Shown in pieces: positions 8,594-63,976 of a stretch of DNA of 64,000 nt. The first letter of the stretch is position 1. The number at the start of each line of letters is the position of its first letter. The notes under the pieces are model-generated. The model was not told the DNA's origin. It searched no databases and was given only the letters and a program-made list of their open reading frames with translations. The position numbers and the translations under genes were made by a program. The DNA is from a virus (Duplodnaviria; Caudoviricetes), in the IMG/VR virus record IMGVR_UViG_3300037424_001076, positions 17,928 to 81,927 of that record. One strand, 5' to 3'.

Positions 8594-9113
8594 TTTGAGA
8601 TATAACGGTCATCTCTTTAGTTTCATAATTTATTTTCACTACTATATTTTGGAGAATCAAAGCACCAAATGAATTCTTAGCTCGATAAACCATTTTCACT
8701 CTAATGAATTCATCGTTTGATTTATCAAATGTTGTTTCTTCATGTTCGAAACTTCCCGGGTCATTTAAACTTTTTTTAACTAATTTTACAAGATCCCTAT
8801 TTGATCCATCCCAAGCACTAAAATTATTTTTTAACCATGCTTCTTTCATAGAATCTTTTGTAACTACTGGGTCTATCTTCACTGGAACAGGGGTAGGGAC
8901 TGTAGGTGATTTTTCAACCGTTTTTACTTCTGGCTTTTCTACTTTTACATTTTCAACAGTACTTTTAGATCCATATAATATTAGAACGAATGAACAAACC
9001 AACATCACTACTATAGCCTGTTTCCTGTTCTTGATCTTTAATTCTACCAATTTTCCTCTCACCAATGCCACCAAACTAATTATAAATCCGACTGATGCTA
9101 AAGTATTTAACAT
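8586..9113 (-). CDS. Membrane-anchored hypothetical protein
   Basis: Two N-terminal hydrophobic segments, Pro/Val linker, soluble C-domain (FSAWDGS..LNDPGSFEH..YRAKNSFGA). Confidence 0.7.
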   Translation of the reverse strand: MLNTLASVGFIISLVALVRGKLVELKIKNRKQAIVVMLVCSFVLILYGSKSTVENVKVEKPEVKTVEKSPTVPTPVPVKIDPVVTKDSMKEAWLKNNFSAWDGSNRDLVKLVKKSLNDPGSFEHEETTFDKSNDEFIRVKMVYRAKNSFGALILQNIVVKINYETKEMTVISQNV

Positions 9114-9114
9114 T

Positions 9115-9492
9115 TTATTTTTCCTCCTTATTATTCATGATTACTTCCGCCGGGTTCACATAACATAAACTAAGTCTTGGTCTTAATTCTCTGCAATCCT
9201 TCACCTTTACCGATTCAAAATGCACATCTCTCTCAATTCCTTGAATACCCATCCACCGGACACTATTTAACTCACTCAATAAAAAGTATCCCCATTCTTT
9301 ATCTAATCCATCTACAAGTCCGAAGAATAAATAATCTCCATTGTCTTGCCTTTCTCCTTCTACTGCATACCATGTCCAATTACTCCCTAATGCAAAGAAC
9401 TTGCAAATTATTTTCTTTTCATTAGTTTTAACACCCTCAGTGCTATACAATTTTGGCATTTTATTTTCGATTTCTTTTGTTAATAATTTCAT
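9115..9492 (-). CDS. DUF2958-like protein
   Basis: KFF...WTWY..E....FFGLVDG...EWGYF.LSEL pattern. Confidence 0.75.
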   Translation of the reverse strand: MKLLTKEIENKMPKLYSTEGVKTNEKKIICKFFALGSNWTWYAVEGERQDNGDYLFFGLVDGLDKEWGYFLLSELNSVRWMGIQGIERDVHFESVKVKDCRELRPRLSLCYVNPAEVIMNNKEEK

Positions 9493-17548: not shown

Positions 17549-17970
17549 CCCTTTCGATCTTCCTTTATAATTTCCATGATCGAGAATAAAGTACCAATGG
17601 TTTTAGATTCTTTTCTATATGAATCTCTATATTTCTTACTAATCTCCGGCTCATCACAATGGAACGTCCTGCATATACTCGGCCTAGTATTATATATCAT
17701 ACAACGATAATTTTTTGAGAACGGACACAACCAATAGATTACACCTTTTTTTAAATAGTCTTTAATTAGTTCTTGTCCTCGGTCAAGAAGCATCCTGCCA
17801 CGCTTATCCTTTTTTAAAAACCTCTTGAGCTTTGCATACTCCTCATCTGTCAACATAGAACCCATAGAACAACACTCATTGCAACTTATACAATCTGGGT
17901 TATTCATTGATATTATTTGATCTTCTCTCATCTCTTCGATCATTGTCTTTACATCTGCTTGCTTTGGCAT
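17545..17970 (-). CDS. YkgJ-family cysteine cluster protein
   Basis: CxxCxxCC ... CPF....C.IY..RP.ICR.F.C. Confidence 0.88.
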   Translation of the reverse strand: MPKQADVKTMIEEMREDQIISMNNPDCISCNECCSMGSMLTDEEYAKLKRFLKKDKRGRMLLDRGQELIKDYLKKGVIYWLCPFSKNYRCMIYNTRPSICRTFHCDEPEISKKYRDSYRKESKTIGTLFSIMEIIKEDRKG

Positions 17971-31950: not shown

Positions 31951-34839
31951 TTAACGTGTCCCCCTCCCTCTAGTCCTATCTTTTTGTAATCTATACAATT
32001 GTTGGGCTACCTTTAAAACATCTGCCTCTTCTCTTACCACTAATTGAGCCACACTGACTTGAACCCCACCCCAATTTCCTTGTCCTCCCCCTTCTGAATA
32101 TGATGTTGGAGCAGTAGTTGTCGTTGGTACTGCCATTGTTGTTGCTGTCATAGGTGACGTAACACCCATTCCTAACCCCCCGGGAGTTCCCGCAGCCATT
32201 AAACCAGTTTGGGGTTGAAATGCATCCATTATTTTTCTTCCCGTTGCAGCATATCCCGGAGTTAAACTTTTGATATCTTGTAATGTAGCAAATGCTTGAT
32301 TACCCATATTTATAAATTCATATTCCATTTTAGTTTTCGGAGATCCCCTTAGGCCAGATTTAAATCCTTCCCAAAAATTACTAGCTATATTTCTTGCTTT
32401 AGTATAAAGAATTCCCGGTAAGCCATTAACATAATCGATAACTCTTTGAAATTCTACCCTAAAATTTGGAAGTAAACCAGATAACCAAGTTGATATTTGT
32501 CCGGGAATTTGACTAATCGCCCTGCCTACATTACTTACAATAATTCCGAACCATGCTACTGTATTATTACTGACATCACGCCATTTGTTAGATATTGTTT
32601 GCCATATACTTTGTAATCCTCCCACTATCCTTCCGGGGATTGATTCAATGTAATTTACTACTTGACCTACAATTATGTCCCACCATGCCACTGTATTAGT
32701 ACGAACATCACGCCATTTATCAGAGATGGTTTGCCAAGTTTTTTGAAGTCCTCCTGTTATTCTTCCGGGGAGTGATTCAATGTAATTTACTATTTGACTT
32801 ACAATTATGTCCCACCATGCCACTGTATTAGTACGAACATCACGCCATTTATCAGAGATGGTTTGCCAAGTTTTTTGAAGTGCAATATCAATTTTATCCG
32901 GCAAATCTATAAAATATTTAACAACTTTTCCAACTGTTTCTCCAGCCATGAATGCCCAATTAGCCATATCTTCATCGGAAGTATTTAAAAAAGATTCAAT
33001 ACTTGAACCTACATCCGGCATAGTCTTAGCAAAATCTTCATCTGTTTTCCTTAACCAATTCTCAAAAGTTGTTCCCCATGATGTTGTTTTCTCTAAAATA
33101 ACTTTATCTGAAGCAATAAGGCTATCCTCAATAAATTTACCAATCTTAGGCATAATTTCCGATATTTTAGTATCAATAGATATTAACCAATTTTCAAAAG
33201 ACTTTCTAAATGAATTAGTATTATCTAAAATAACTTTATCCGAAGCAGTAAGAGCATCACTTATTGATGTTTGTACATCTTTGAAATCTTGGCTAGTTTT
33301 ATCCTTGATATTTTTTAACCATGCATCCCAACTAGCAAATGAATTATTATTAAACGTATTCATGTCTTCATCTGCTCCGCCTAGTATGCTTTCAAGGCTT
33401 TTCTTCATATCTTCCCAATCTTTGGTGATCTTAGAAGTAACCTCTGTAGTTTTCTTTTTAACGTCTTCAAAACTAATTCCCAACATTCCCGCTATCGCAA
33501 TTACAGCTGCAATTGCCGCTGGGACTGCTAAGAAACCCAAAGTGAGTCCACCAACCGTAACTCCCAATAATGCAGCAACTGGTGTTAATATTCCAATAGC
33601 AGCCGAAACTCCGGCAAATAAAAGCAACAACGGCCCGATAGCCGCAGTCAATCCAAGGAAAACTAAAATACCATTTTGAATATTAGGATCTAATTTTATA
33701 AACCAATCAGTAACACCTTTAACTGCTTTCCCTAATCCCTCTAATATTGGAATCAATTTTTGACCAATTATTATCCCAGCAGTTTCTAGAGAACCTTTCA
33801 ATTCTTCAATTGATCCCCTAAAACTATCCATTCTTTCTTTAGCAACTTGTTCCGCACTAACGTTTCCAATTTGTTCCTTTAATTTATTAACACCTTCTGC
33901 TCCTTCTTTGTAGAGAATATTAGCCGCCCTAATAGCATCTGACCCGAATAGAGTTTCTAAAGTCGCTAATCTCTGTGCATCAGTCATTCCAGAAAGCGAG
34001 CTTTTTAAAAGACCAGATATTTCTGCCAAACTCTTAACTTTACCTTCTTGATCAAAAAACGCACTCGTTCCTTTTGCTGTTGTTAATCCTAATTCCTTGA
34101 ACAATGCAATTTGTTCTTTTGTTCTTGGCTGCAGATTAAGAAACATCGTCTTAAGAGAAGTTCCAGCATCACTACCCTTTAATCCATTATTAGCAAAAAG
34201 TGCCAATGCTGCAGAAGTATCTGCAAATGAAAATCCAACCCCCGAAGCAACAGCCGATACTTGCGATAATCCCAATTGGAGAGAACTAACTGATGCTGCC
34301 GATGCATTTGCTGAACCAGCCAATATATCTGCTGCATCAGATACACTTAGCCCATCTTTTCGAAAGGCATTAAGAGCTGTTGATGCAACAATTGCCGCTT
34401 CGCTCAATTCAATCCCGCCCGCAGCAGCTAGATCTAATGCACCCTTTAAACCTCCACCCATAACTTCTTCAACGCTTAATCCAGCCTTTAATAATTCGAG
34501 CATTCCATCTGACGCTTCACTTGCCGAGAACGTTGTACTTGCTCCCATTTCTAATGCTAATTTTGATAGCGATTTCATCTGATCTCCTGTTGCTCCTGTT
34601 ATCGCTCTAATATTAGCCATAGATTGGTCAAATTCTGCTGCAGCATCAACAGATGCTTTTCCCATTGCAAGAATAGGTAATGTTAATCCTAATGTTAAAT
34701 TTCTACCCGCAGAAGTCATGAATCCTTGTAATCTCTGCACCGTTGATGTTGCATTATTCATGTTATTTTGGAAAGCAGTGATATTTGCGCTTAGAATTAC
34801 TTGAATATCAGCAATGGTGAGTGCCATAATTTTCACCAA
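31951..34839 (-). CDS. Tape measure protein (TP901 family)
   Basis: FDQSMANIRA.TGATG..T.FSASEA..M.EL.KAG; Trp-periodic C-terminus. Confidence 0.93.
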   Translation of the reverse strand: MVKIMALTIADIQVILSANITAFQNNMNNATSTVQRLQGFMTSAGRNLTLGLTLPILAMGKASVDAAAEFDQSMANIRAITGATGDQMKSLSKLALEMGASTTFSASEASDGMLELLKAGLSVEEVMGGGLKGALDLAAAGGIELSEAAIVASTALNAFRKDGLSVSDAADILAGSANASAASVSSLQLGLSQVSAVASGVGFSFADTSAALALFANNGLKGSDAGTSLKTMFLNLQPRTKEQIALFKELGLTTAKGTSAFFDQEGKVKSLAEISGLLKSSLSGMTDAQRLATLETLFGSDAIRAANILYKEGAEGVNKLKEQIGNVSAEQVAKERMDSFRGSIEELKGSLETAGIIIGQKLIPILEGLGKAVKGVTDWFIKLDPNIQNGILVFLGLTAAIGPLLLLFAGVSAAIGILTPVAALLGVTVGGLTLGFLAVPAAIAAVIAIAGMLGISFEDVKKKTTEVTSKITKDWEDMKKSLESILGGADEDMNTFNNNSFASWDAWLKNIKDKTSQDFKDVQTSISDALTASDKVILDNTNSFRKSFENWLISIDTKISEIMPKIGKFIEDSLIASDKVILEKTTSWGTTFENWLRKTDEDFAKTMPDVGSSIESFLNTSDEDMANWAFMAGETVGKVVKYFIDLPDKIDIALQKTWQTISDKWRDVRTNTVAWWDIIVSQIVNYIESLPGRITGGLQKTWQTISDKWRDVRTNTVAWWDIIVGQVVNYIESIPGRIVGGLQSIWQTISNKWRDVSNNTVAWFGIIVSNVGRAISQIPGQISTWLSGLLPNFRVEFQRVIDYVNGLPGILYTKARNIASNFWEGFKSGLRGSPKTKMEYEFINMGNQAFATLQDIKSLTPGYAATGRKIMDAFQPQTGLMAAGTPGGLGMGVTSPMTATTMAVPTTTTAPTSYSEGGGQGNWGGVQVSVAQLVVREEADVLKVAQQLYRLQKDRTRGRGTR

Positions 34840-39507: not shown

Positions 39508-40641
39508 TTAAGATGACCCGAATGCTGCAAATTGACTGTTATAAACTAACCATGTAGTCGTCGATGCACTTACCATCGAAACTGCTTCTCTTGCAGTATT
39601 GAATGTGATTTTTCTGCCTGTTGATCCTTGGGATGAAGAGAAAACTGTCTTTGTCGATGCTGGCACTATAAAAGTTCTTGCAGTAGTACCAACTTGACTG
39701 AGTACAAAGATTGTTTTAACAAATCCGGCTGCTGTCGGATCTGCTAAAGTCCATGTTACTTGGGTTGTATTTGCTTGGGCCAATGACGTAAAACCCTTAT
39801 TTGTTATAGCAGTCCCAACTGTAGTCGTTGTTTTAGCAAGATAAGAATCAATAAATCCTCCACCTTGTACAAAACCAGTAGCTACGAAATTAGAACTTGC
39901 TGTCACATGAGCACCCGAAAGATTACTAGATGCACTCACTGACTGACCAGAAATATCACTAGTTGCTGTCAATTTAATGACTGTAGCCGTACCATCTGAA
40001 TCAATCGTTGCCACCGTGCTATTCGCTGAGTCCTTAATAAAGAATTTTTTAACACCTAAGGCATCACCTAAAGTGATCTTTACATTCCCACCAGTAGGGA
40101 TCATTTTTATATCTGATGTTCCAGATACTACAAAATCATCCGTGTTAATTGTCAAGTTCACACTAGAAAGATTACTTGTCGCACTTACCGATTGACCAGA
40201 AATGTCACTACTTGCTGTTAGCTTAATGACTGTAGCTGTACCATCAGAATCAATCGTTGCCACCGTACTATTAGCTGAATCTTTGATGAAGAATTTTCTC
40301 GCCCCGGCTGCATCCCCTAATGTAATCTTCACATCTCCACCAGTTGGTTTCATGGTTATATCAGACGTTGCAGTAACGACAAAATCATCCGTATTAACAG
40401 CAAAGCTTCCAGTTACATCAAAATCACTTGTGGCAGCAAGACCAGTAAAACTTGCAACTCCAAGAGAATTAATACTAGCAACTTCGACTGTTGAAGCATT
40501 TAATATGCTTACTTTTGTAACCCCAGCCGTGGAACGCAATTGCAAATTAATATCTCCATCTGAAAACAAATAGCTATCAGTTGATGGAAGATTTCTGAGC
40601 ATATTCGAATAGATTGGTCTTTTAATATACTCATTACCCAC
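39508..40641 (-). CDS. Ser/Thr-rich virion structural (head fibre-like) protein with 83-aa tandem duplication
   Basis: 249-bp internal repeat (e.g. 40132 vs 40381); C-terminal domain paralogous to 40686..41072. Confidence 0.65.
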   Translation of the reverse strand: MGNEYIKRPIYSNMLRNLPSTDSYLFSDGDINLQLRSTAGVTKVSILNASTVEVASINSLGVASFTGLAATSDFDVTGSFAVNTDDFVVTATSDITMKPTGGDVKITLGDAAGARKFFIKDSANSTVATIDSDGTATVIKLTASSDISGQSVSATSNLSSVNLTINTDDFVVSGTSDIKMIPTGGNVKITLGDALGVKKFFIKDSANSTVATIDSDGTATVIKLTATSDISGQSVSASSNLSGAHVTASSNFVATGFVQGGGFIDSYLAKTTTTVGTAITNKGFTSLAQANTTQVTWTLADPTAAGFVKTIFVLSQVGTTARTFIVPASTKTVFSSSQGSTGRKITFNTAREAVSMVSASTTTWLVYNSQFAAFGSS

Positions 40642-43672: not shown

Positions 43673-45133
43673 TTAATTGACTGGTTTATCTACAGGGATT
43701 CTTTTAGAAAATCCTCCTATTGAAAAACCAGTTAATTTTTTTTCTTTCACACCTTGCCACATTTTTTCATCATTGATTTTGACGACCATTATCCATGTAC
43801 CCTTTGTTACATTTTGACTACCAAATGTAAAATCTAAAGGTGCAAGATAACTTTCAACGACATTCGCCTTAGCCTTAGCTTTGTGTGATTCCCCAATAAC
43901 TCTAGAATCCTGTAAATAAACGTGTGCAGCTTTCTCTATTTCTTCGGCTCCTATCGTGTCATTTTGGGCATCGACACTTCCCGGTTCTAAAACTATGCCA
44001 TATACAAGTTGCTTTTCTACATCAGCCTTGATTATATCGGCATAGATTACTTCATCTTTTTGATCATTAGGCTTAACCTTCTTCGGCCTCTTCCAATTAG
44101 TAGAATTTATATGGACATCACCCACACTTGGCAATCCCTTATTAATTTCCTCAAGTTTAATTTTGATCTGTTTAAGTTTTCTTCCAACTTCACCAGAATC
44201 ACTGAACCTTCGGATTGCCATAGGATGAGGTAAAACAAAATCAACATCTTCGCCAAGACCTTTTTTTGCTCTCTGTCCTAATGCAACAATAACTTTTGGA
44301 TTTGCTCTTTCTAATTCCTTTTCTAACCACTCATTCCAATCATCAACCTCAATATCTGTCGGCTCCCTAACATTACCCAATTTGTCAATTAACAACATCG
44401 GGACAGCATTAGTTAAAAATACATCCTCCCGGCTCAACCCTAATGGTTTAATATATAATTCATTAAAGGTTTCTCCGCACGGCCCAACGAATGCCTCTCC
44501 TCTCAAATATTCAATTTTACCCGGTGAAGCACCGACAAAAGCTATTTCAGAATTTGCCTTGCCCGAACTTTTAACCATCGGCACGAATTTATCATTTTTC
44601 TCAACTACCGGAATTCCCTTCTGGAATGGACTGATTAACTTTTCATCATCCCACATTTCCCTCATCTTCGCATAATATCTGTCAATGTGATCCTTCATTC
44701 CTTGTAAATCTTCCTTTGGAACATTTATTTGTGATGCTCCTCCAGCCAATCTAGCCCCACTAAGTACTCCTGCTGCAGCAAATATTCCCCTCGGTATTGC
44801 CATTAATTTCCCATCAATCACATTTGCAATTGGGAATTTATATCCACCAAAAGTTTCCTTATTTTCATCATCAACCCATAAGAATCCTTGGCTAAATTTA
44901 CCCCAATTTATATCTTCCTTATCATCTCCCCCCGCCCACTCCCTAATATTTTTTTCCGCCTCTGATCCATCCCACTCCATTTTCCTATCTGCAAGAGGTA
45001 AATCCTTGAATGGTGTTACACCCTTAATTATTTCTTCTGGAACTGCTATTTCATGAATCTTATCAAACGTTTCTTTTGGTATAAATTTTTTGAGAGTATC
45101 CAAAACTACATCCAAATACTCCTGAACTTGCAT
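43673..45133 (-). CDS. Fusion: head-morphogenesis domain + uracil-DNA glycosylase-like domain + XkdF-like putative prohead serine protease
   Basis: FVGASPG..E..GEAFVG..G..VFLTNAV..P..IVALG..HP (UDG family 4-like); QLVYGIVLEP...DAQND...EIEKAAH..GTW...TGFSIGG (XkdF). Confidence 0.8.
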   Translation of the reverse strand: MQVQEYLDVVLDTLKKFIPKETFDKIHEIAVPEEIIKGVTPFKDLPLADRKMEWDGSEAEKNIREWAGGDDKEDINWGKFSQGFLWVDDENKETFGGYKFPIANVIDGKLMAIPRGIFAAAGVLSGARLAGGASQINVPKEDLQGMKDHIDRYYAKMREMWDDEKLISPFQKGIPVVEKNDKFVPMVKSSGKANSEIAFVGASPGKIEYLRGEAFVGPCGETFNELYIKPLGLSREDVFLTNAVPMLLIDKLGNVREPTDIEVDDWNEWLEKELERANPKVIVALGQRAKKGLGEDVDFVLPHPMAIRRFSDSGEVGRKLKQIKIKLEEINKGLPSVGDVHINSTNWKRPKKVKPNDQKDEVIYADIIKADVEKQLVYGIVLEPGSVDAQNDTIGAEEIEKAAHVYLQDSRVIGESHKAKAKANVVESYLAPLDFTFGSQNVTKGTWIMVVKINDEKMWQGVKEKKLTGFSIGGFSKRIPVDKPVN

Positions 45134-48247: not shown

Positions 48248-49593
48248 TTAAAATTTATGAGGACTCTCACGGGTAAAATCTTCGATCCCCGCAGGATTAT
48301 AACTAGCAATCTTTTTAAGTCCACCCATGAGTTCAGTTATAGCGATTGTTAATGCATCGATCCGATCCGGTGAATCTGGATCATTTTCTGCATCCCATTC
48401 AATCATTTGAGTTTCCAAATCCGGGAAAGTCCCAAGATGATGGACACGATTTTGTTCATATAAGGCTGCAATAGGCTCTGCCCTTATCTTCTTTCCCCTA
48501 CTTGCATGAATTCCCTTGAAACTAATATTCGGTTCAATCGTCTTTATAACGTGCTCAACCATGTCCCCACCTTGATTAATTTCTGCAACGATCCTATCCG
48601 CCTTCAATTTATTGTAAAGTGATACCACTGCATTTCCCCATCCATTCGGACTCTCAATACAAGACTTATCATCAAGGACATAAAATTGACCGTCATTACC
48701 TTTTCCAACAGCAATAATTCCAGTCTCATCCGAATTTTTATTAGCTGTGATAGCCGGATCAACCCCGACGACAACCCTAACCAATGTCGGATGCTTATTC
48801 ACCCGAGTATCTTCAATATTTTGACTCTTCCATAATGCTTTCGGGTTATCATCAAGAACTTCCGCATAAATTTCCTGTCTTCCCAATCTGGTATTTTCCA
48901 ATCTATCGATTATGGCATCAAAAAAAACAGGGGATAAATTCTCCCTGTTCTCAAAAGTAGATCCTCTTGTTATATGAACATTCTTAGCTATCACCAATTC
49001 CTTAATCGTTTTTGTCGGTCTTGGCGTTGTTGTTATTATGCATCGTGGGTTTTTCCCTACTCTCAAGCAAAAGGAAACCATATCCATTATTTCCTTTTGC
49101 TTCCTAGTGCTCGCTAATTCGTCGATCCACGCCGTGTCTATGTTAGGGCCACGTAACTGATCTGGTTCATCCCCTGAATACGTTATCGCCATCGCCCCAG
49201 TATGAAATGTGATTCTCCTTTTTGATGGTTCATATAAAGGTCTTTGATGGGCAGGAAACACACTTAATATTCCACTAATTCCCTCAACCATTACATCCCT
49301 TACATCTGCTGCTCTAGGGGCAACTAAAGCAATCTGCATTGCTTCACCACTATCCACTCTTTTTCTGATCCATTCACTTCCTGTTCTTGTCTTACCTAAC
49401 CCCAGCCGCGACCCGCAAGGATCAACCAATAAAACCAATTTCCCAACGGTTCGAGCTGATTTTTTCTTCCCCACACCTCCCAGCTATAAATCAAATAGTT
49501 TATTTCATCTATCTCAAGTTCATTTATGAATTTACATAACCCCTCTTTTCCTAAAGCAAGCAAATTCTTTTTGGATAATTTAGCTCTAAGCAT
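48248..49593 (-). pseudogene. terL: Terminase large subunit, frameshifted inside Walker A
   Basis: ORF 49396..49593 ends ILAGRGWG*; ORF 48248..49474 continues GKTRTG..WIDE..VGVDP..DRIDA. Removing 5 nt at 49394-49398 restores AGRGWGKTRTG. Confidence 0.88.
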
Positions 49594-55614: not shown

Positions 55615-56690
55615 ATAAAATTACACCAATCTGACCAAGTAACCACTTCGTCTTTCTTGATATCCCTATTCGCCCTTTTCCCAATCAATTGATCTGCATA
55701 TAAGGGTGAAACACCAGTTCCCGGCCTTTTTGCACTTATCATATTTTTAGTTATAATTTCACCTTCCACTATGTCCAGACTAGCAACAATACTAGTAAAA
55801 TATAAACTCTTCATCGATAAATCTTCGATCGACGGTTTTAGATTTTTTTCCCCTAACGCCTTTTCTGCTTGTCTAACTGATAAAATCCATTTTCTGAATT
55901 CAACTGGATCAAGTGCTTTTATATGGTGATGGCCAATAATATTTCTATCCAACGTCAATCTTTTTTCAATTAGATTAGCACCCAAAGCTATCGCCATAGT
56001 ATCAGCAACAATATCCCTTGTATCTGCAGCATATCCGATTGGAATATTTAACATCTCTTTGAGATAAGGAATTCCCTTTAAATTTATTTTCTCGATCGAA
56101 CTCGCATGACTACAATAAACGAGCATGACCTCCCTAGCCCCATTTTTCTCTAAGAACTCTATGATCTGGACAACCTCGCCCATGATCGCCGGGCCTAGAT
56201 CTATTTGAATAGGTTTACCCGTCCTCGCAACTGCCTCAAGGAGAGGGTAATTCCTTAGATCCCATGATCCTATTTTATAAGCAGAAACATTTGCATCTTC
56301 TGCCCACTCCACACTCCGAATCGAATCGACAGATAAATAAAAAGTGATTCCTATTTTTTTAGCATACTGAGATAATTCAATAAGTTCATACGGTTGAAAT
56401 TGATGCTTTTTAAGCATTTCAAACATATTTTCTTCCTTAGTTCCTTCGCTAGTTTCATATATATAATTAACTGTCTTGTCAGACATAAATTCTTCACAAT
56501 CAATAGTTTGAAACTTTACTGCATCTGCTCCCGCTTCCTTCGCCTCATATATAAGTTCCTTAGCAACTTCTAATGAACCATAAGCAGTAACACCAGTTTC
56601 GACGACAATAAAAACTGGCTTTCCATCTCCAATTTTATTTTTATCTATCTCAATACACGATTTTAGATTACTCTTAATTTGCATCTTCAA
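55611..56690 (-). CDS. neuB: NeuB/PseI-family synthase with SAF domain, copy B (divergent active-site motifs)
   Basis: ADAVKFQT..KIGS.D..EKRLTLDR..KRPGTG; the usual INHNG, HC and SDHT motifs are altered (VTAYG, YC, AADT). Confidence 0.85.
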   Translation of the reverse strand: MKMQIKSNLKSCIEIDKNKIGDGKPVFIVVETGVTAYGSLEVAKELIYEAKEAGADAVKFQTIDCEEFMSDKTVNYIYETSEGTKEENMFEMLKKHQFQPYELIELSQYAKKIGITFYLSVDSIRSVEWAEDANVSAYKIGSWDLRNYPLLEAVARTGKPIQIDLGPAIMGEVVQIIEFLEKNGAREVMLVYCSHASSIEKINLKGIPYLKEMLNIPIGYAADTRDIVADTMAIALGANLIEKRLTLDRNIIGHHHIKALDPVEFRKWILSVRQAEKALGEKNLKPSIEDLSMKSLYFTSIVASLDIVEGEIITKNMISAKRPGTGVSPLYADQLIGKRANRDIKKDEVVTWSDWCNFI

Positions 56691-57229
56691 ATTTCCCCCA
56701 ATTTGAGTTTAGCAATTTTTTTCCTAGTTTTTTTCGCCAACTTACTCACATATGCACGCGATATTTTCAAAACATCTGCTACATCTTTTTGTGGTAATTC
56801 ATAATAGAATAGCATCTCAATAATTGTTTTCTCATAATCTTCCAACGATGTAAAGATATCTTTGAGCACTATCAAATCTAATACTCGTTCATATTCTCTT
56901 GGGTAAGATTCATCTAGAATTAGATTATCCATGATTTCGAGATTTTCATAAGATACCGGCCTTTTTCTCATTAACATCTTAATTTCATTTTCTATGCATC
57001 GCCCTGCATATGTCGTAAACTTTGCTCCCTTGTCAGGATTAAATGTCAATCCCGCTTTACATAAGCCATATGCTGCATTACAAAAAACCTCATCATATGA
57101 ATACTCTATATTTTTAGCTACATATCTTTTAGTTATATATCCGGCAAGACAAATATTATCTTCAACAAGTTTCCTCTGCTCCTCCGTCATCTTTTTCATC
57201 TCTTTGCCTCCCGACAAAGTAAAAACCAA
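56687..57229 (-). CDS. Sigma-70 family sigma factor (sporulation SigK/SigE-like)
   Basis: LVEDN..LA..YGLCKA..F.PDKG.KF.TYA.RCIENEI.M..QK.VA..L.ISR.YVS. Confidence 0.9.
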   Translation of the reverse strand: MVFTLSGGKEMKKMTEEQRKLVEDNICLAGYITKRYVAKNIEYSYDEVFCNAAYGLCKAGLTFNPDKGAKFTTYAGRCIENEIKMLMRKRPVSYENLEIMDNLILDESYPREYERVLDLIVLKDIFTSLEDYEKTIIEMLFYYELPQKDVADVLKISRAYVSKLAKKTRKKIAKLKLGEI

Positions 57230-57238
57230 GAGATAAAA

Positions 57239-57835
57239 CTATGATACCTCTTGTCTATCAGACTTTTCACTGAAATCTTTTAATTTTTGAATTATCCTTT
57301 TTTCCAATCTACTTATATATGATTGGGATATTTTTAACTCATCTGCGATTATCTTCTGGGATTTCATATGGAAATACCTCGAAATAATTATTTGTATCTC
57401 CCTATCCTTCAACATCCCAAGTGCTTCTTTTGCACACATGATGTCCAATATCTCATTGTATTTTAGATGATCATCATTACTAAGTACTCCTTCTAAACTA
57501 GCTTGATTTCCTTCTTTATCCTCCGTCAAGATTTCATTTAGATAAATATCAGACCCATTTCTCGACTGATTCCCTCTTTTCCTGAAAGCCATCTTAATTT
57601 CATTTTCCATGCATCTCCCAGCATATGTCGCAAACTTTGCTCCTTTATTAGGGTCAAATGTCCGCGCAGCTTTACAAAGTGCAAATGAAAACATTGAAAA
57701 TATTTCATCATAATCAAAGTTCCTAACCCCACCTTTGAGCCATTTGTTAGTCATATATCTAGCTAGATTGATATTATCCTCAACCAACTTTTGTTGATCT
57801 TTCGTCATCTTCCTTTGCATTCCCAACATAGCCAT
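57239..57835 (-). CDS. Sigma-70 family sigma factor (sporulation SigK/SigE-like)
   Basis: FATYAGRCMENEIKM..SQK.IA..L.ISQSYISRLEKRII..L. Confidence 0.92.
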   Translation of the reverse strand: MAMLGMQRKMTKDQQKLVEDNINLARYMTNKWLKGGVRNFDYDEIFSMFSFALCKAARTFDPNKGAKFATYAGRCMENEIKMAFRKRGNQSRNGSDIYLNEILTEDKEGNQASLEGVLSNDDHLKYNEILDIMCAKEALGMLKDREIQIIISRYFHMKSQKIIADELKISQSYISRLEKRIIQKLKDFSEKSDRQEVS

Positions 57836-57871: not shown

Positions 57872-58087
57872 TCATTTCTCTAAACTCTTATTCTGCTCTT
57901 TGAATCTTTCCTTACTCGGATTCGTATCTAATTTATGATCCCCACACCAATCATGGTCTGGATAAACTGCCGGGTATCCATTCATAGTTGGTGCTTTTCT
58001 CCTGCATCTTCCGATCTCCAATGTTTTAGGTGCATAAAATGCACACGTCGAACAAGAAAATCCAGTCTTGCGATCCCATTTATCCAT
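57872..58087 (-). CDS. Small Cys-rich protein
   Basis: CSTCAFY..G.CRR.AP..YP.V...WCG.H. Confidence 0.65.
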   Translation of the reverse strand: MDKWDRKTGFSCSTCAFYAPKTLEIGRCRRKAPTMNGYPAVYPDHDWCGDHKLDTNPSKERFKEQNKSLEK

Positions 58088-59156
58088 TTTCTACCTCCTC
58101 TCCAACTTCCCTCAATGCTGCAATAACCACCTTTTGTTCTGCATCGGTAAGGCCCGGGAATAACGGAATAGTCAATAAATACTGCCACATTCTTTCTGCT
58201 ACTGGCGTTTGACCGGGCAGATTATAGAAACTTTGAAGTGTAACTGGCCTATAATGAATTTGGGTTTTCACTCGATACTCTAGAAGTTTTTCAATATATT
58301 TATCACGATGCTTTGTAGCGATAATATAAATGTGTCTCGCATTTGTTCGATCTCTTTTCTGGATGATCCTGCCAAGATTCATGTCATCAATTGCTTCATC
58401 ATATACCTCTGCCAATTTTTGTCTTTCCCATACTAATTCTGGAATTCTCTTTATCTGGTTTAAGCACAATCCCGCATGGATATCTGACATTCTATAATTA
58501 TATCCAAGGAAAACCATGTCCCCAAACACCCGACCATGATTTCTAAATGCTTTCATTCGGGCATAGGTATGTAAATTATCTGTTGTTATGACTCCACCTT
58601 CACCACTCGTTATGAGTTTTGAAGCATGTAAACTGAAACAATTTAGATCCGCAAGAGTCCCAACTTTCTGATCTTTATACGTTGCTCCCAATGAATGACA
58701 TGCATCAGCTATTATTTTAAGTCCATGTTTTTCCGCAATTTCTTTGAGTTCACTATAATCTGCTGGCTGACCAGCAAAATCAACAGGAATAATTGCCTTT
58801 GTTCTATCAGTTATCTTTCTTTCAACATCCTCTGGATCAATTAAGAGTGTCTTTTCGGATACATCTGCGAATATGGGACTTGCATTCATATACCTAACGG
58901 CATTCGCCGTTGCCACAAACGTCATAGATGGCACGATCACTTCATCCCCCGGCCCGATCCCTGCTGCCATTAATGCCATATGAAGTGCTGCCGTCCCACT
59001 CGAAACTGCTACAGCATACTTTGATCCTACTGACCTCTTGAATTCATCTTCGAATGCTTCAATGATCTCACCTTGGGTTATCGATTTACTTCTTAGCACT
59101 CGGACAACTTCTTCGACGTCCTCTTCTTCAAGATGGTGTTTAGCATAGGGAATCAA
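58080..59156 (-). CDS. pseC: UDP-4-amino-4,6-dideoxy-HexNAc transaminase (PseC-like DegT family)
   Basis: MIPYAKH..TQG..SSGTAALH..TFVATAN..DACHSLGA..SLH.SK.IT.GEGG..LGYNYRMSD. Confidence 0.88.
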   Translation of the reverse strand: MIPYAKHHLEEEDVEEVVRVLRSKSITQGEIIEAFEDEFKRSVGSKYAVAVSSGTAALHMALMAAGIGPGDEVIVPSMTFVATANAVRYMNASPIFADVSEKTLLIDPEDVERKITDRTKAIIPVDFAGQPADYSELKEIAEKHGLKIIADACHSLGATYKDQKVGTLADLNCFSLHASKLITSGEGGVITTDNLHTYARMKAFRNHGRVFGDMVFLGYNYRMSDIHAGLCLNQIKRIPELVWERQKLAEVYDEAIDDMNLGRIIQKRDRTNARHIYIIATKHRDKYIEKLLEYRVKTQIHYRPVTLQSFYNLPGQTPVAERMWQYLLTIPLFPGLTDAEQKVVIAALREVGEEVENG

Positions 59157-59240
59157 TGTTCCTCAACTCTCTTTCTATCAAGTCCTCCATAAAATAATTA
59201 AAGCACTCACGTAGTGAATGCCATTTCATAACACATATTC

Positions 59241-59504
59241 CTATGAAAATGTTATCCCTTTTTTCTTACAAGCCGAGACTACATATGTTTCGTCTTCTGT
59301 CTTTTCAACAATAATGAGATATTCAGGTGGGCATTCACCTTGTTCTACCTCATCGAATAGATCCGATACAGCTATGTATTCTACTGAATCCCTATGGAAC
59401 ATCATTTCTGCCCTATATATCAACATTCTCCCAGTGATTGCCATTACTAACTCTGGCGATTCTAAAATATCTGTCCTTGAAATATTGAACGTTCCTAATC
59501 TCAA
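59241..59504 (-). CDS. Hypothetical phage protein
   Basis: EY.A.S..FDEV..GE..PEY motif; RBS present. Confidence 0.6.
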   Translation of the reverse strand: MRLGTFNISRTDILESPELVMAITGRMLIYRAEMMFHRDSVEYIAVSDLFDEVEQGECPPEYLIIVEKTEDETYVVSACKKKGITFS

Positions 59505-59540: not shown

Positions 59541-60026
59541 TGATCGCTCAAACATCATGCTTGAAATCGTTTGTTTTGGCTCACTCATGGAATTTGTTCT
59601 TCATCGGATAATTTGGTTCACTCGCGTTATTTGGGTTACTCATGGCAACTGATTCACTCGCAAGGACTGGAACTCTCCTCCCCTGTGGTTCACTCCTGTT
59701 CTCTGGGCATCTCTTCTGACCCGGTTCATTCGTTTTCTTTGCTTTTTTCACACATTATAATTCTCTCCGTTGATATGATTGAACTCAAATTCTGGATCGT
59801 TCAGGTGTTATGACACTATCCCTTTCCACTGGCTCACTCATCTTATGTGCTTCTATCTCTTATCTTGATTCACTCCGTTTTTTTGGCATTCTCATTCTTA
59901 TTGATTCGTTCAGGTGACATGATGCTATCCCTTTCTCTGACTCACTCCTTCATGATGGGGTTTCTCAACACTTCTGGTTCACTCCCACACAATGCTTAAA
60001 TCTTTTTCCATGGTTCGCTCATTTAC
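59541..60026 (-). ncRNA. TIGR-like dual-repeat array 2 (~14 edge repeats, ~36-nt period), orphan, interrupted by IS608-like element
   Basis: Same TG(G/A)(T/C)TC(A/G)CT motif at 59541, 59577, 59614, 59650, 59686, 59722, (59758 degenerate), 59793, 59830, 59866, 59902, 59938, 59975, 60011. Confidence 0.85.
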
Positions 60027-60360
60027 CACTTGTTGCCGTAAAGCCCCTTGTTTTAACTATGGGGGTATAAGGCAAATCCATAAACTACCTGTCCAGAACA
60101 TACCTGAATGATGTTATAATTGATCTAATATGATCTTTGAAAATTGAACATATGAGGTTGTGGTAGAAAGTCTGCCACGTAAAATGTTCAACGAGCAATG
60201 CATATTAAATGGCGAAATGCGATAACCAAGCAGTAGCCAATGCGGTAAAAGGTAAATTAATTTTTAAACGATGGGACACATCGGGTTAGCTTGGTTAATA
60301 AACTGTCATCAAGACGGTCTTTCCCAAGAATCCCCTAGCTTTAGCTATGGGGAGTGTCAA
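60027..60360 (+). mobile_element. Non-autonomous IS200/IS605 (IS608-like) element, copy 2, 334 bp
   Basis: After TTAC (60023-60026), ends TCAA (60357-60360); near-identical to 2618-2951 with different flanks. Confidence 0.9.
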
Positions 60361-60388
60361 GAATGGTCTAACCTCTATGGTAATGGGC

Positions 60389-61387
60389 CTACATAATACC
60401 TTTTGCAATATCATTTATGCTCAAAAAATCATCATTTTCATTACTTACATACTGTGCTTTCTTAAAAGGTTCTCCATTAATTGTTCCTCTTTGAAACCAA
60501 TTTTGAGGACTTTCTATGATAAAAAAATCACCAGCATCAATTGTCATAGGGGCTTCTTGCTCACTGATAAGAGCCTCATGAAGTTTTTCCCCTTCTCTTA
60601 TGCCGATAAATTTATTATCCGACTTCGGAGCTATAGCCCTTTTTAGATCTAGAATTCTAACACTCGGAATCTTAGGGATGAATATCTCCCCACCACGCAT
60701 CACTTTAATTGCACTCGCTACAATCTCACATGCTTTTTCTGGTTTTAACCAGAATCTAGTCATTCTAGGATCAGTAATTGTGATCGGCTGACCTTCATCT
60801 CTTTGGCTAATCATAAGTGGTACAACACTGCCACGCGATCCAATCACATTTCCATATCGAACACAACTAAATCTGGTTTTCGTTCCACTTGCATAAGCAT
60901 TCCCATTAATGAATAATCTTTCAGATAAAAACTTTGTTCCTCCATATGTGTTGCTCGGACTACACGCCTTATCTGTGCTTATGCCCATGACACGTTCAAC
61001 ATTTTCGTCGATCGCAGATTCAATCAAATTTTGGACCCCTATCACGTTTGTCTTAACTGCCTCGTAAGGGTTATATTCACAAGCAGGAACTTGTTTCAAG
61101 GCTGCTGCATGTATTACTATATCAACGCCATGCAGCGCTCTCCTTAGACGTTCTCTATCCCTTACATCACCAATAAAAAAACGAATACGTTCATCATCGT
61201 ATCCATTCATTCTCATCTCATGTTGCTTTAATTCATCTCTTGAGAAGATAATAATTCTCTTTGGCTTTTCTTTTTCTAAAATCCACTTCACAAAAAAATG
61301 GCCGAACGTACCAGTTCCCCCGGTAATTAGAATCTGCTTATCAAGAAAACAATAAGGCACTTGTCCGCTTCCCCCTCTAATTTCCAT
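60389..61387 (-). CDS. pseB: UDP-N-acetylglucosamine 4,6-dehydratase (inverting), PseB/FlaA1 family
   Basis: LITGGTGTFG..FSRDELKQ..HAAALKQVPACEYNP..STDKA..YGGTK..RYGNVIGSRGSV..MTRFW. Confidence 0.93.
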   Translation of the reverse strand: MEIRGGSGQVPYCFLDKQILITGGTGTFGHFFVKWILEKEKPKRIIIFSRDELKQHEMRMNGYDDERIRFFIGDVRDRERLRRALHGVDIVIHAAALKQVPACEYNPYEAVKTNVIGVQNLIESAIDENVERVMGISTDKACSPSNTYGGTKFLSERLFINGNAYASGTKTRFSCVRYGNVIGSRGSVVPLMISQRDEGQPITITDPRMTRFWLKPEKACEIVASAIKVMRGGEIFIPKIPSVRILDLKRAIAPKSDNKFIGIREGEKLHEALISEQEAPMTIDAGDFFIIESPQNWFQRGTINGEPFKKAQYVSNENDDFLSINDIAKGIM

Positions 61388-61612: not shown

Positions 61613-62356
61613 CTAGATACCTTTTAATGGTACATTCACCCTTGGGTCAATATCTTTTGATATATCAAACTTAACAATTCTGTTTCCCCACTTTTTTTCT
61701 AGCAATATCAAATGTTCTAATTCTTTTTGTTTAGTCCTATACGAAACAACCCCACCAACTTTATTGATGTGATTGACTAGATAATAGAATTTATTAAATC
61801 TGAGAATTTTATGGTAACGATACAAGACTTGGAGGCACATATCATAGTCCTCTTTAAGGTAAATTCTCTCGTCATATCTAAACTCATTATTACAGAATGC
61901 CTGAAATGGCCCCAAGCACACCGACAACATAGAAAACGGGGAATACTCTCGATAAAATTTTGGGTCAGATTGCACATTTAATCCCCACATAACCGTTCCT
62001 AAATCACGGCACATCTGAAAACCATTTTTCAATAAATCTTCCACTTGTTCACAATTCAATTTGATTTGTTTTCTATTTTCGATCATTCCCACATGTTCAT
62101 AATCATCATCAACTATAGCTATATTTCCTTTTCCCATATCGCTAAAATGATTCATGATATAATTTCTTTTCCTGACTATATTCCCATCACCCTCATCCGG
62201 GATTACCAATAACTCGCAACCATTACTATATTGATACTTTTCATATTCATCTCTTTGGCTTTCAGGGATAACAATCTTCGCATTCCTAAATACCTTATCA
62301 CTGCTGACTCCACCAGCTCGCTTATAAGAGATAATAAACACTTGATAATTTGCCAT
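61613..62356 (-). CDS. GREB1/TAGT-like GT-A glycosyltransferase
   Basis: IISYKR..RKRNYI..VDDD (DxD)..KEDYD..LQ..GG. Confidence 0.72.
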   Translation of the reverse strand: MANYQVFIISYKRAGGVSSDKVFRNAKIVIPESQRDEYEKYQYSNGCELLVIPDEGDGNIVRKRNYIMNHFSDMGKGNIAIVDDDYEHVGMIENRKQIKLNCEQVEDLLKNGFQMCRDLGTVMWGLNVQSDPKFYREYSPFSMLSVCLGPFQAFCNNEFRYDERIYLKEDYDMCLQVLYRYHKILRFNKFYYLVNHINKVGGVVSYRTKQKELEHLILLEKKWGNRIVKFDISKDIDPRVNVPLKGI

Positions 62357-62359
62357 GAT

Positions 62360-63013
62360 TCACACAATCCTATCTAAGATATCAGCACCACGAATTACCC
62401 TTCCAATTCCCTTTCTTATATAACCCTCTTTGCTATCGATGGCATGTTTTGATCTTATATTAAATTTATCTTGGGCAACTTGCCAATCTAATGTGTTATC
62501 AAAATAGAGCACAATATAATTGTGTTCCTCAAGAAGTTCCTCAGTAAATTCAAATTCAGGCGCTTCACTTTCCATAGGTGAAAACTTATCCATAATTTTA
62601 TCTACTTCTTTTTCATCGAAACCAATGGACTCAAAATCTACCGGGTCAATCTCACCAAGCAATAAATGTAATTTTTCAAGATCCCAATCCCCACTTATTT
62701 TATTTAAGGCTATATTTAATTTCTTTTCCTTTTTCTCATCGACACTTATAACAGAAACTTGGATCTCTTCGTAACCAAGTTCCTTCATGACTTTCACCCT
62801 TTGATGTCCACCCACGATCCTATTTGTTTTTTCATTCCAGATAATAGGTTCAACATAATCATAAGATTGTAGCGATTTTTTTAACTTTTTATACTCCGGG
62901 TCACTAGGTTTAAGATCAGCCCTTGGGTTATAATCAGCAGGAATGAGGAGATCAATATTCATCATCCTTAATTGAATATTAGTAACCTTGACTGGTTTTA
63001 TATCTCCATCCAT
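62360..63013 (-). CDS. ParB/Srx N-terminal domain protein
   Basis: PADYNPR..L..SL..Y.YVEPIIWN..IVGGHQR..LNIALNKISG.WD. Confidence 0.9.
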   Translation of the reverse strand: MDGDIKPVKVTNIQLRMMNIDLLIPADYNPRADLKPSDPEYKKLKKSLQSYDYVEPIIWNEKTNRIVGGHQRVKVMKELGYEEIQVSVISVDEKKEKKLNIALNKISGDWDLEKLHLLLGEIDPVDFESIGFDEKEVDKIMDKFSPMESEAPEFEFTEELLEEHNYIVLYFDNTLDWQVAQDKFNIRSKHAIDSKEGYIRKGIGRVIRGADILDRIV

Positions 63014-63544
63014 TTAATCAATTTCCCCCTCGTTCATTGGGTTATTTGAAATTATATTTAATGAGTTGAATTTTTCAATTAATTTTTGTTTTACATCTTC
63101 AACTTGAACTGGACTACCACCGGGCCCACTAATTTCATGACTTTCCCTTTTACCCCAACGATCTGGATATTTTCTTTCTAATCTCCAAGCTGCAGCTTGC
63201 CATGATAATAAAGAAGCACGTCCAATAGTATTCACATCACGAATTTCTGCATCAGCCTGAGCCTTTCTTATTGCCACTGAAAATTCCATAAATGGTGTTT
63301 CCGATTTTATAGGTCTTGCATCTTGGTCTTTATTAAGTCTTTCTTCTTCCCTCGATCCTCTTCTCATCCAATCTCTAATCGTGGATTGGGCTAAACCAAC
63401 ATAAGATGCAGCAGTTTCCATATAATTTCCAGCTTTTATTAACATAATTATTTTATCTTGGATTTCCTTTGTTATCTTGGTAGGTCTGCCTACACTTTTA
63501 GGCATAACACTCACTCCCCATAAAAATAGCAAAAACGACCTCAA
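63014..63544 (-). CDS. Terminase small subunit-like HTH protein
   Basis: GRPTK..I..G...ETAA..G....T..W..G..WQAAAW.LER.YP..WG. Confidence 0.78.
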   Translation of the reverse strand: MRSFLLFLWGVSVMPKSVGRPTKITKEIQDKIIMLIKAGNYMETAASYVGLAQSTIRDWMRRGSREEERLNKDQDARPIKSETPFMEFSVAIRKAQADAEIRDVNTIGRASLLSWQAAAWRLERKYPDRWGKRESHEISGPGGSPVQVEDVKQKLIEKFNSLNIISNNPMNEGEID

Positions 63545-63655: not shown

Positions 63656-63976
63656 CTAAAAAATGATTCTTTTTCCATAATATATAGTCCTTTCCAACTT
63701 GACCAACGCCCTCGCCTTAGTTCTTCTTGCATTTCTTTCGCTAATTTTCATGTCTCCACATATACGATAAAACGGTTCGCCATCTATCACTTTTCTTTTT
63801 ATGATCTCATATTCAAAACGAGTTAATGCCTTTAATGCACCATCTAATATTTCTAATCTCTGATATATCACAGTTATTTTTTCTTCCAGCTCTTTTCTTC
63901 TCCCAATTAAATTAAGAGCATCCATCTCAGTTGGTTTAGATATATTATAACTTGTACCAACCTTTTCCAAGTTCAT
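63656..63976 (-). CDS. RinA/ArpU-like late transcriptional activator (C-terminal part; may start beyond window)
   Basis: L.AL...E..II......G......C....ISER...R....AL..L; upstream of terS. Confidence 0.65.
   Translation of the reverse strand: MNLEKVGTSYNISKPTEMDALNLIGRRKELEEKITVIYQRLEILDGALKALTRFEYEIIKRKVIDGEPFYRICGDMKISERNARRTKARALVKLERTIYYGKRIIF

Follow-up and report, generated by a model that had tools for sequence, protein, structure and literature searches.

Anatomy of array 2 between pseB and orf87

The DNA analysed here (the window, 64,000 nt) covers positions 17928–81927 of an 81,927-nt linear viral contig, which is 76% complete according to CheckV. Nearly all genes of the window are on the minus strand. 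A repeat array, designated TIGR array 2 (59541–60020, minus strand), is located between terS (63014–63544) and terL (48248–49474), where an earlier note on this DNA had placed it. In the RNA sense, the array is preceded by terS, a gene for a ParB-N protein, a TAGT-like glycosyltransferase gene and pseB. The pseB-like gene (60389–61387, minus strand) encodes a UDP-sugar 4,6-dehydratase (Polysacc_synt_2, E 1.5e-95) and lies directly upstream of the array. On the other side, orf87 (59241–59504, minus strand) starts 36 nt past the last edge repeat and encodes a small conserved protein that matched neither a Pfam nor a PHROG family. A terminator-like hairpin with a T-rich tail (59202–59222, minus strand) is present just past the orf87 stop, and the next gene is a pseC-like DegT aminotransferase (58080–59156, minus strand; DegT_DnrJ_EryC1, E 8.7e-111), followed by two sigma-70-like genes, two NeuB genes, more sugar genes and terL. 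The description of this region as 'late' is an assumption made from gene content.

The array contains 14 edge repeats and 13 full dual-repeat units, as defined by unit parsing, repeat consensus and periodicity. The edges start at plus-strand positions 59541, 59578, 59615, 59651, 59687, 59723, 59759, 59794, 59831, 59867, 59903, 59939, 59976 and 60012 with an edge-to-edge spacing of 35–37 nt, in agreement with the 14 motifs at about 36-nt spacing that had been noticed before. In the minus-strand reading the edge consensus is GAGTGAACCA; its plus-strand counterpart, GGTTCACTC with variants, occurs 14 times in 59541–60020. Each unit is laid out on the minus strand as an edge of 10 nt, spacer A of 8 nt, a loop of 10 nt and spacer B of 8 nt, and the unit length is exactly 36 nt in 8 of the 13 units and 35–37 nt in the remainder. 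The loop repeat has the form GA-N6-CA, with GA at the start and CA at the end of all 13 loops. Edge and loop have these terminal motifs in common (the edge ending in ...CCA) in every one of the 13 units, and edge positions 1, 2, 5 and 6 (G, A, G and A) are constant in 13 of 13 parsed edges. Several edges within the array are degenerate, for example GAGAGAATTA and GAACGATCCA. The terminal edge in the RNA sense, GAGCGATCA at 59541–59549, is also degenerate and is followed by orf87, with the terminator-like site only past this gene.

A strict form of the edge pattern is matched 11 times in 480 nt, against a mean of 0.27 and a maximum of 3 in 2000 shuffles. Autocorrelation, which the earlier note had named as a check of the periodicity, supports it, the top lags of array 2 being 18 (strongest), 72, 109, 36 and 54 nt. 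Such lags are to be expected where edge and loop resemble one another. When the whole 82-kb contig was scanned without any motif at lags of 18, 36 and 72 nt, the array blocks alone were flagged, array 2 with a robust z of 6.7. No Rfam family matched anywhere in the window at gathering thresholds, only chance-level matches appeared around array 2 and the adjoining insert at E up to 5, and a tRNA search found none.

At one mismatch or fewer, the edge has 33 matches in the minus-strand gene sense and 0 in the opposite sense. Because of this strand specificity, and because both repeats end in CA like the CCA of box C, the RNA strand of array 2 is, as judged from its repeats, the minus strand. The same observations bear on a reading in which the repeats are either DNA iterons (those of the neighbouring ParB-N protein, for instance) or a coding repeat that has degenerated, and do not form an RNA array at all. 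A DNA periodicity of 18/36 nt and a ParB_N gene at a distance of 2.3 kb would suit iterons. However, the edge motif is strongly strand-specific and the repeats are those of the array directly after tasA, while a coding repeat is contradicted by stops in every frame (4–15 per frame across array 2; longest open stretch 57 codons on the minus and 82 on the plus strand). We therefore regard this reading as extremely improbable.

Dual-repeat TIGR arrays consist of alternating edge and loop repeats of 8–12 nt and spacers of ~9 nt in units of ~36 nt (Faure et al. 2025, PMC12045711). Edge and loop share box D-like and box C-like terminal motifs, which provides pseudo-symmetry for the Tas dimer; published TasR motifs are UG...CCA, and the motifs vary between loci (PMC12045711). 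Array 2 resembles the arrays of dual-repeat TIGR-TasA systems such as Flavonifractor plautii FpTasA (PMC12045711) in its 36-nt edge/loop units with shared terminal motifs. Its spacers are 8 nt long, as in SpTasH, and not 9 nt as in the systems of PMC12045711. Apart from its end, where a degenerate last edge is followed by orf87, array 2 fits every sequence feature of dual-repeat TIGR arrays that was tested, except adjacency to a tas gene. By these features, the minus strand of 59541–60020 is a genuine dual-repeat TIGR array.

An IS608-like element in the leading half-unit

The whole interval 59541–60388 had previously been described as array. This description is correct for 59541–60020, but not for the 368 nt of 60021–60388, which hold a mini-element and short array remnants. 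Similarly, the array had been said to begin right after the pseB stop, which is true only of a vestigial leading half-unit (60361–60375, minus strand) and not of the contiguous array, whose end is at 60020. The half-unit comprises a loop-like repeat, GAGGTTAGACCA (60364–60375), and the first 3 nt of a spacer B, while the other 6 nt of this spacer, GTAAAT (60021–60026), are found on the far side of the inserted element.

The insert (copy B, 60027–60360, plus strand) is a 334-nt IS608-like element of the IS200/IS605 family, with TTAC before it (60023–60026) and TCAA at its end (60357–60360), and it lacks the array periodicity in autocorrelation. A second copy (copy A, 2618–2951, plus strand) is located after TTAC at 2614–2617, ~440 nt downstream, in the RNA sense, of array 1. 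The two copies are ~97% identical and their flanks are otherwise unrelated. Both have TTAC on the 5' side and TCAA at the right end, with no target duplication and no terminal inverted repeats. Their subterminal hairpins are in direct orientation, with the guide tetranucleotide AAAG before the left one (AAAG-CCCCTAG...CTATGGG) and GAAT before the right one (GAAT-CCCCTAGC...GCTATGGGG).

The cleavage and guide signals at the ends of IS608 have been described (PMC3201880), and the mini-element is like IS608 of Helicobacter pylori in its TTAC site, TCAA end, direct hairpins and AAAG/GAAT guides. The distance from the cleavage site to the hairpin foot is 17 and 8 nt by our own count, as compared with 19 and 10 nt in IS608 (PMC3201880). 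Unlike IS608, the element is just 334 nt long and without tnpA and tnpB (PMC3201880). A search of the contig for Y1_Tnp (TnpA) and the TnpB zinc ribbon gave no match; the mini-element is therefore non-autonomous and would need a helper. IS605-type ends in Helicobacter, Clostridioides and Geobacillus phages are matched by the ends of the element, whose rightmost 78 nt correspond to sequence directly 3' of an 'ORFB IS605-like transposase' gene in Geobacillus virus E3. No copy of the element is present in the three closest relatives of this phage (G001–G003, described below).

When copy B is removed in silico, TTC joins GTAAAT to give a 9-nt spacer B after the loop-like repeat, and array 2 then starts in the same register as its counterparts in G001 and G002. 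Since its removal restores the register, we conclude that the leading half-unit of array 2 was the insertion site of copy B. Before the insertion, the pseB stop codon and the array start were ~13 nt apart, a distance which is 368 nt at present. The insert is found in this phage alone and may have altered the expression of array 2; its two G+C-rich hairpins now separate pseB from the array and could lower read-through into it.

We also considered the 342-nt duplicated stretch as an array leader or promoter. This was rejected, as it holds no minus-strand sigma-70-like site and its ends are IS608 signals; its predicted fold is of no more than moderate stability (z −2.5). TIGR loops such as GTAACA hold TTAC on the plus strand (seen by eye and uncounted), and it is therefore possible that TIGR arrays are simply rich in IS608-like target sites.

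TasA, the other arrays and related phages

The tasA gene (4834–5775, minus strand) encodes a protein of 313 amino acids with a coiled coil and a Nop domain. In phmmer searches the Nop domain gave matches to the solved TaTasR 9mty (331 aa, E 3.9e-12) and to SpTasH (E 3.6e-7), and the matches to both TasR and TasH start past their nuclease domains. Pfam searches with the protein found no HNH or RuvC domain, only weak sub-threshold matches to Glutaminase and Transposase_20. This Nop-domain protein without a nuclease domain is therefore a TasA. Near its C-terminus, Y284 and H291 are spaced as the SpTasH dyad Y289/H296 for autonomous pre-tigRNA processing (Tyr-x6-His; compared by eye). H291 is invariant, and the Tyr is replaced by Phe in homologues of 56% identity. 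Among prokaryote assemblies, the closest TasA homologues (57–58% identical) come from Eubacterium and Eubacteriales MAG contigs, which are too distant for naming a host or for a target search.

The tasA gene is the sole tas gene of the contig and is situated 53.8 kb from array 2, so that the earlier observation of no Tas gene close to the array is confirmed. A second tas candidate (contig positions 5091–6038, 315 aa) proved to be a DnaB_2/DnaD-like replication protein and was rejected. Only by analogy with relatives that are complete can another tas gene be excluded from the part of the genome that this contig (76% complete by CheckV) lacks. A ParA gene is located at 6769–7530, and tasA belongs to a ParA-linked, partition-type operon. 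The tasA start is overlapped by 8 nt by a gene for a 243-aa protein (5768–6499, minus strand), which occupies the TasParB position of published TasA operons; searches of Pfam, PHROG and PDB sequences gave no match to this protein.

Array 1 (3395–4792, minus strand; ~38 units) is directly downstream of tasA. The earlier statement that arrays 1 and 2 have the same consensus stands, the edge GAGTGAACCA being found in both and the loops being alike. Outside the window, by replication genes, a further TIGR array with repeats as in array 2 is present as two blocks at contig positions 6960–8076 (31 units) and 8460–9300 (23 units). The two blocks are separated by a 383-nt non-coding insert (8077–8459) which has no blastn similarity to the IS608-like element. 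An extended −10-like sequence, TGATATAAT, lies ~45 nt upstream of the array end at contig position 9300. In total, the contig carries one tasA and four array blocks at three loci with ~105 units. The description of array 2 as the second of two arrays is therefore not upheld. This is a phage genome of ~88 kb with a single nuclease-free TasA and three array loci.

Related TasA proteins are encoded in six IMG/VR contigs. Three of these, G001 (88.0 kb, with terminal repeats), G002 (86.7 kb, 99% complete) and G003 (88.0 kb, 100% complete), have one tasA each, with a product 72–79% identical in tblastn, and pseB orthologues that are 73–83% identical. The three-locus array layout is common to all three. 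In G001 and G002 the pseB-side array begins at the pseB stop. In G003 an additional small ORF lies between pseB and the array, which is short there and falls under the periodicity threshold of the motif-free scan. The degenerate last edge GAGCGATCA also ends the pseB-side array in G000, G002 and G003. An orf87 homologue follows this array in the same three genomes and is missing after the G001 array; T-runs after orf87 could be read by eye in G002 and G003. The more distant G005 (TasA 56%, complete, without pseB) has only a tas-adjacent array, and the satellite arrays are therefore a feature of this lineage.

Comparison of position and content in related phages, as the earlier note had proposed, shows that the position is kept in G001–G003 and that the content is mostly different. 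Two units of array 2 can still be recognised. Unit 12 (AATTATCC / AATTCCAT) recurs at the matching position in G002 with 2 of 16 spacer nucleotides differing, and unit 1 corresponds to the first full unit of the G001 array with 3 of 16 differing. Over all arrays, when an adjacent edge is required, 17 units recur across phages at two or fewer differences, as against 2 expected from shuffles. A cross-phage spacer search without array context gave real counts equal to the null.

Within this contig, none of the 13 spacer pairs of array 2 recurs among the other 92 units. The earlier claim that most of its spacers differ from those of array 1 thus proves to be an understatement. Three single spacers repeat, each inside its own array. 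A recent duplication of another array as the origin of array 2 was rejected, as no spacer pair is common to any two arrays.

Targets were searched with 16-nt guides in two geometries, rcA+B and B+rcA. For self-targets, the 105 guides were compared with the 82-kb contig with the arrays masked, and at two or fewer mismatches the counts equalled those of shuffled spacers. The 79 units with 8+8-nt spacers likewise gave no excess of targets in G000–G003 over shuffled controls in both geometries. A target of the array 2 guides would most likely lie outside this phage.

These comparisons also bear on whether the array is a relic, either of an ancestral tas locus or of an old rearrangement, that is unexpressed, decaying and further disabled by the insertion. 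Some edges of array 2 are degenerate, its G003 orthologue is short and below the periodicity threshold, a mini-element separates it from its upstream gene and no promoter is predicted for it, all of which would fit such a view. However, the array keeps its position across four phages with a TasA divergence of 21–28%, and this conservation of position argues against a dead relic. Moreover, the GA...CA ends of all 13 loops and the constant G, A, G and A of the edges are retained, and spacers have been turned over while repeats have stayed intact, a pattern unlike neutral decay. We therefore consider a relic unlikely.

Proposed transcription of array 2 and its proposed use in trans

The arrangement of genes suggests that array 2 is co-transcribed as part of a pseB – array – orf87 – terminator unit. 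Three observations lead to this suggestion: there was no room for a promoter between pseB and the array before the insertion, the minus strand there has no predicted sigma-70-like promoter today, and no terminator is predicted on this strand between pseB and the hairpin at 59222–59202, past orf87. A typical TIGR array ends with a 3' truncated edge and then a rho-independent terminator (PMC12045711).

It is conceivable that the array serves mainly as a cis-acting RNA-processing or regulatory module, in which TasA, by binding and cutting the pseB – array – orf87 message, would uncouple or adjust the expression of the genes on either side, the guides being a by-product. Its location inside an operon, with a conserved ORF next to it instead of a terminator, unlike the typical array end (PMC12045711), is in favour of such a role. 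However, the sequence of the spacers would then not matter and they need not be unique, the anatomy of array 2 is that of the guide array beside tasA, and the G001 array has no orf87 after it. A mainly cis-acting role thus appears less probable even than a relic.

We instead favour the use of array 2 in trans by the single TasA, as had been proposed before from the sequence. This is the simplest reading of the locus, since the repeat consensus is common to the arrays, there is one tasA, and the relatives also combine one tasA with a pseB-side array. According to this proposal, array 2 would be transcribed within the pseB – array – orf87 message. TasA, produced from the distant partition-type operon, would bind this transcript in trans via the shared GA...CA repeat ends, and the transcript would be cut into 36-nt tigRNAs. 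Tas proteins are known to be required for processing and to bind 36-nt tigRNAs (PMC12045711). A TasA dimer, with two 8-nt spacers per guide, would then bind a 16-bp DNA site without cutting it. As TasA has no nuclease domain, DNA binding with repression is to be expected; binding without cleavage has been shown for another TasA (bioRxiv 10.64898/2026.09.09.750476). The most likely outcome would be that a target outside this phage is no longer transcribed or replicated. We consider it probable that this explanation as a whole is correct, namely that a real TIGR array is carried on a pseB–orf87 co-transcript and bound in trans by a distant, nuclease-free TasA.

A wider proposal is that one TasA and ~105 guides form a multi-locus programme with three differently wired units and staged guide sets, in which cutting by TasA also couples the expression of pseB and orf87. 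The three units may be the tasA/ParA operon, the stand-alone array by the replication genes and the pseB–orf87 message. Stage-specific expression of the arrays, suggested for infection in the earlier note and here extended to lysogeny, would fit their three differing genomic contexts. We put this proposal forward tentatively, and as a whole it is rather doubtful.

The partner of array 2 is like that of described TIGR-TasA systems in being a nuclease-free Nop-domain protein in a phage setting (PMC12045711). TasA has been reported to be a guide-dependent transcription repressor (Xu et al. 2026, bioRxiv 10.64898/2026.09.09.750476). The MbTasA of that study, like the TasA found here, is without a nuclease domain; however, it is of the stem-loop type and was used with engineered guides, and the study describes neither a natural target nor a supply of guides from several loci (bioRxiv 10.64898/2026.09.09.750476). 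In position, array 2 differs from the arrays described so far. These are found upstream, downstream or inside tas (PMC12045711), whereas array 2 is 53.8 kb from tasA. Unlike them, it is located between two genes of another module, has an ORF after it and is one of three loci for one tasA (PMC12045711).

Two published surveys sought TIGR arrays within 5 kb of tas or 'surrounding tas loci', and the words orphan or multiple arrays were not found in their texts. In the papers searched, 'TIGR array' and 'orphan' occurred together only in an unrelated 2007 cyanobacterial study. Because the surveys were confined to the surroundings of tas, they would have overlooked arrays that work at a distance and counted too few guides. 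Orphan CRISPR arrays can be served in trans by a distant cas locus. By analogy, array 2 may be compared with them, as it has no adjoining effector and its repeats match those of the effector-linked array in the same genome. It is unlike them in belonging to another RNA-guided family, in having no leader or adaptation machinery and in guides that would be split over two spacers.

The lineage provides four orthologous copies of one satellite array, in which the repeats and the position are kept, two units are recognisable and the rest have been replaced. These copies are comparative material on the origin and turnover of TIGR spacers, a question raised by the discoverers of the system. An array inside an mRNA between two genes offers a simple test of trans processing by TasA and of operon-timed guide supply. 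With the host known, a phage with ~105 natural guides is also a good place to seek natural targets of TasA.

Several other features of the window were observed. The sugar-biosynthesis module includes a pair of neighbouring sigma-70-like genes (regions 2 and 4; 56687–57229 and 57239–57835, minus strand), which have a 112-nt stretch in common at 78% identity, and a third, sigma region-4-like ORF is present at 63656–63976. The TET-associated-glycosyltransferase-like gene and the ParB-N gene between terS and pseB together occupy 61613–63013 (minus strand), a pair that may point to DNA hypermodification; ParB-N-like genes also adjoin the pseB-side array in G001 and G003. In a 486-aa protein (43673–45133, minus strand), a uracil-DNA-glycosylase-superfamily domain is joined to an XkdF-type prohead protease domain. 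Tandem repeats at 32526–32921 (132 nt, 3 copies) and 39901–40397 (249 nt, 2 copies) lie within large minus-strand structural ORFs. Finally, a 35-nt motif that ends in TTGTTGACTTTGTCCACA occurs six times between 9691 and 15937 before small minus-strand genes, and resembles a repeated promoter or operator.
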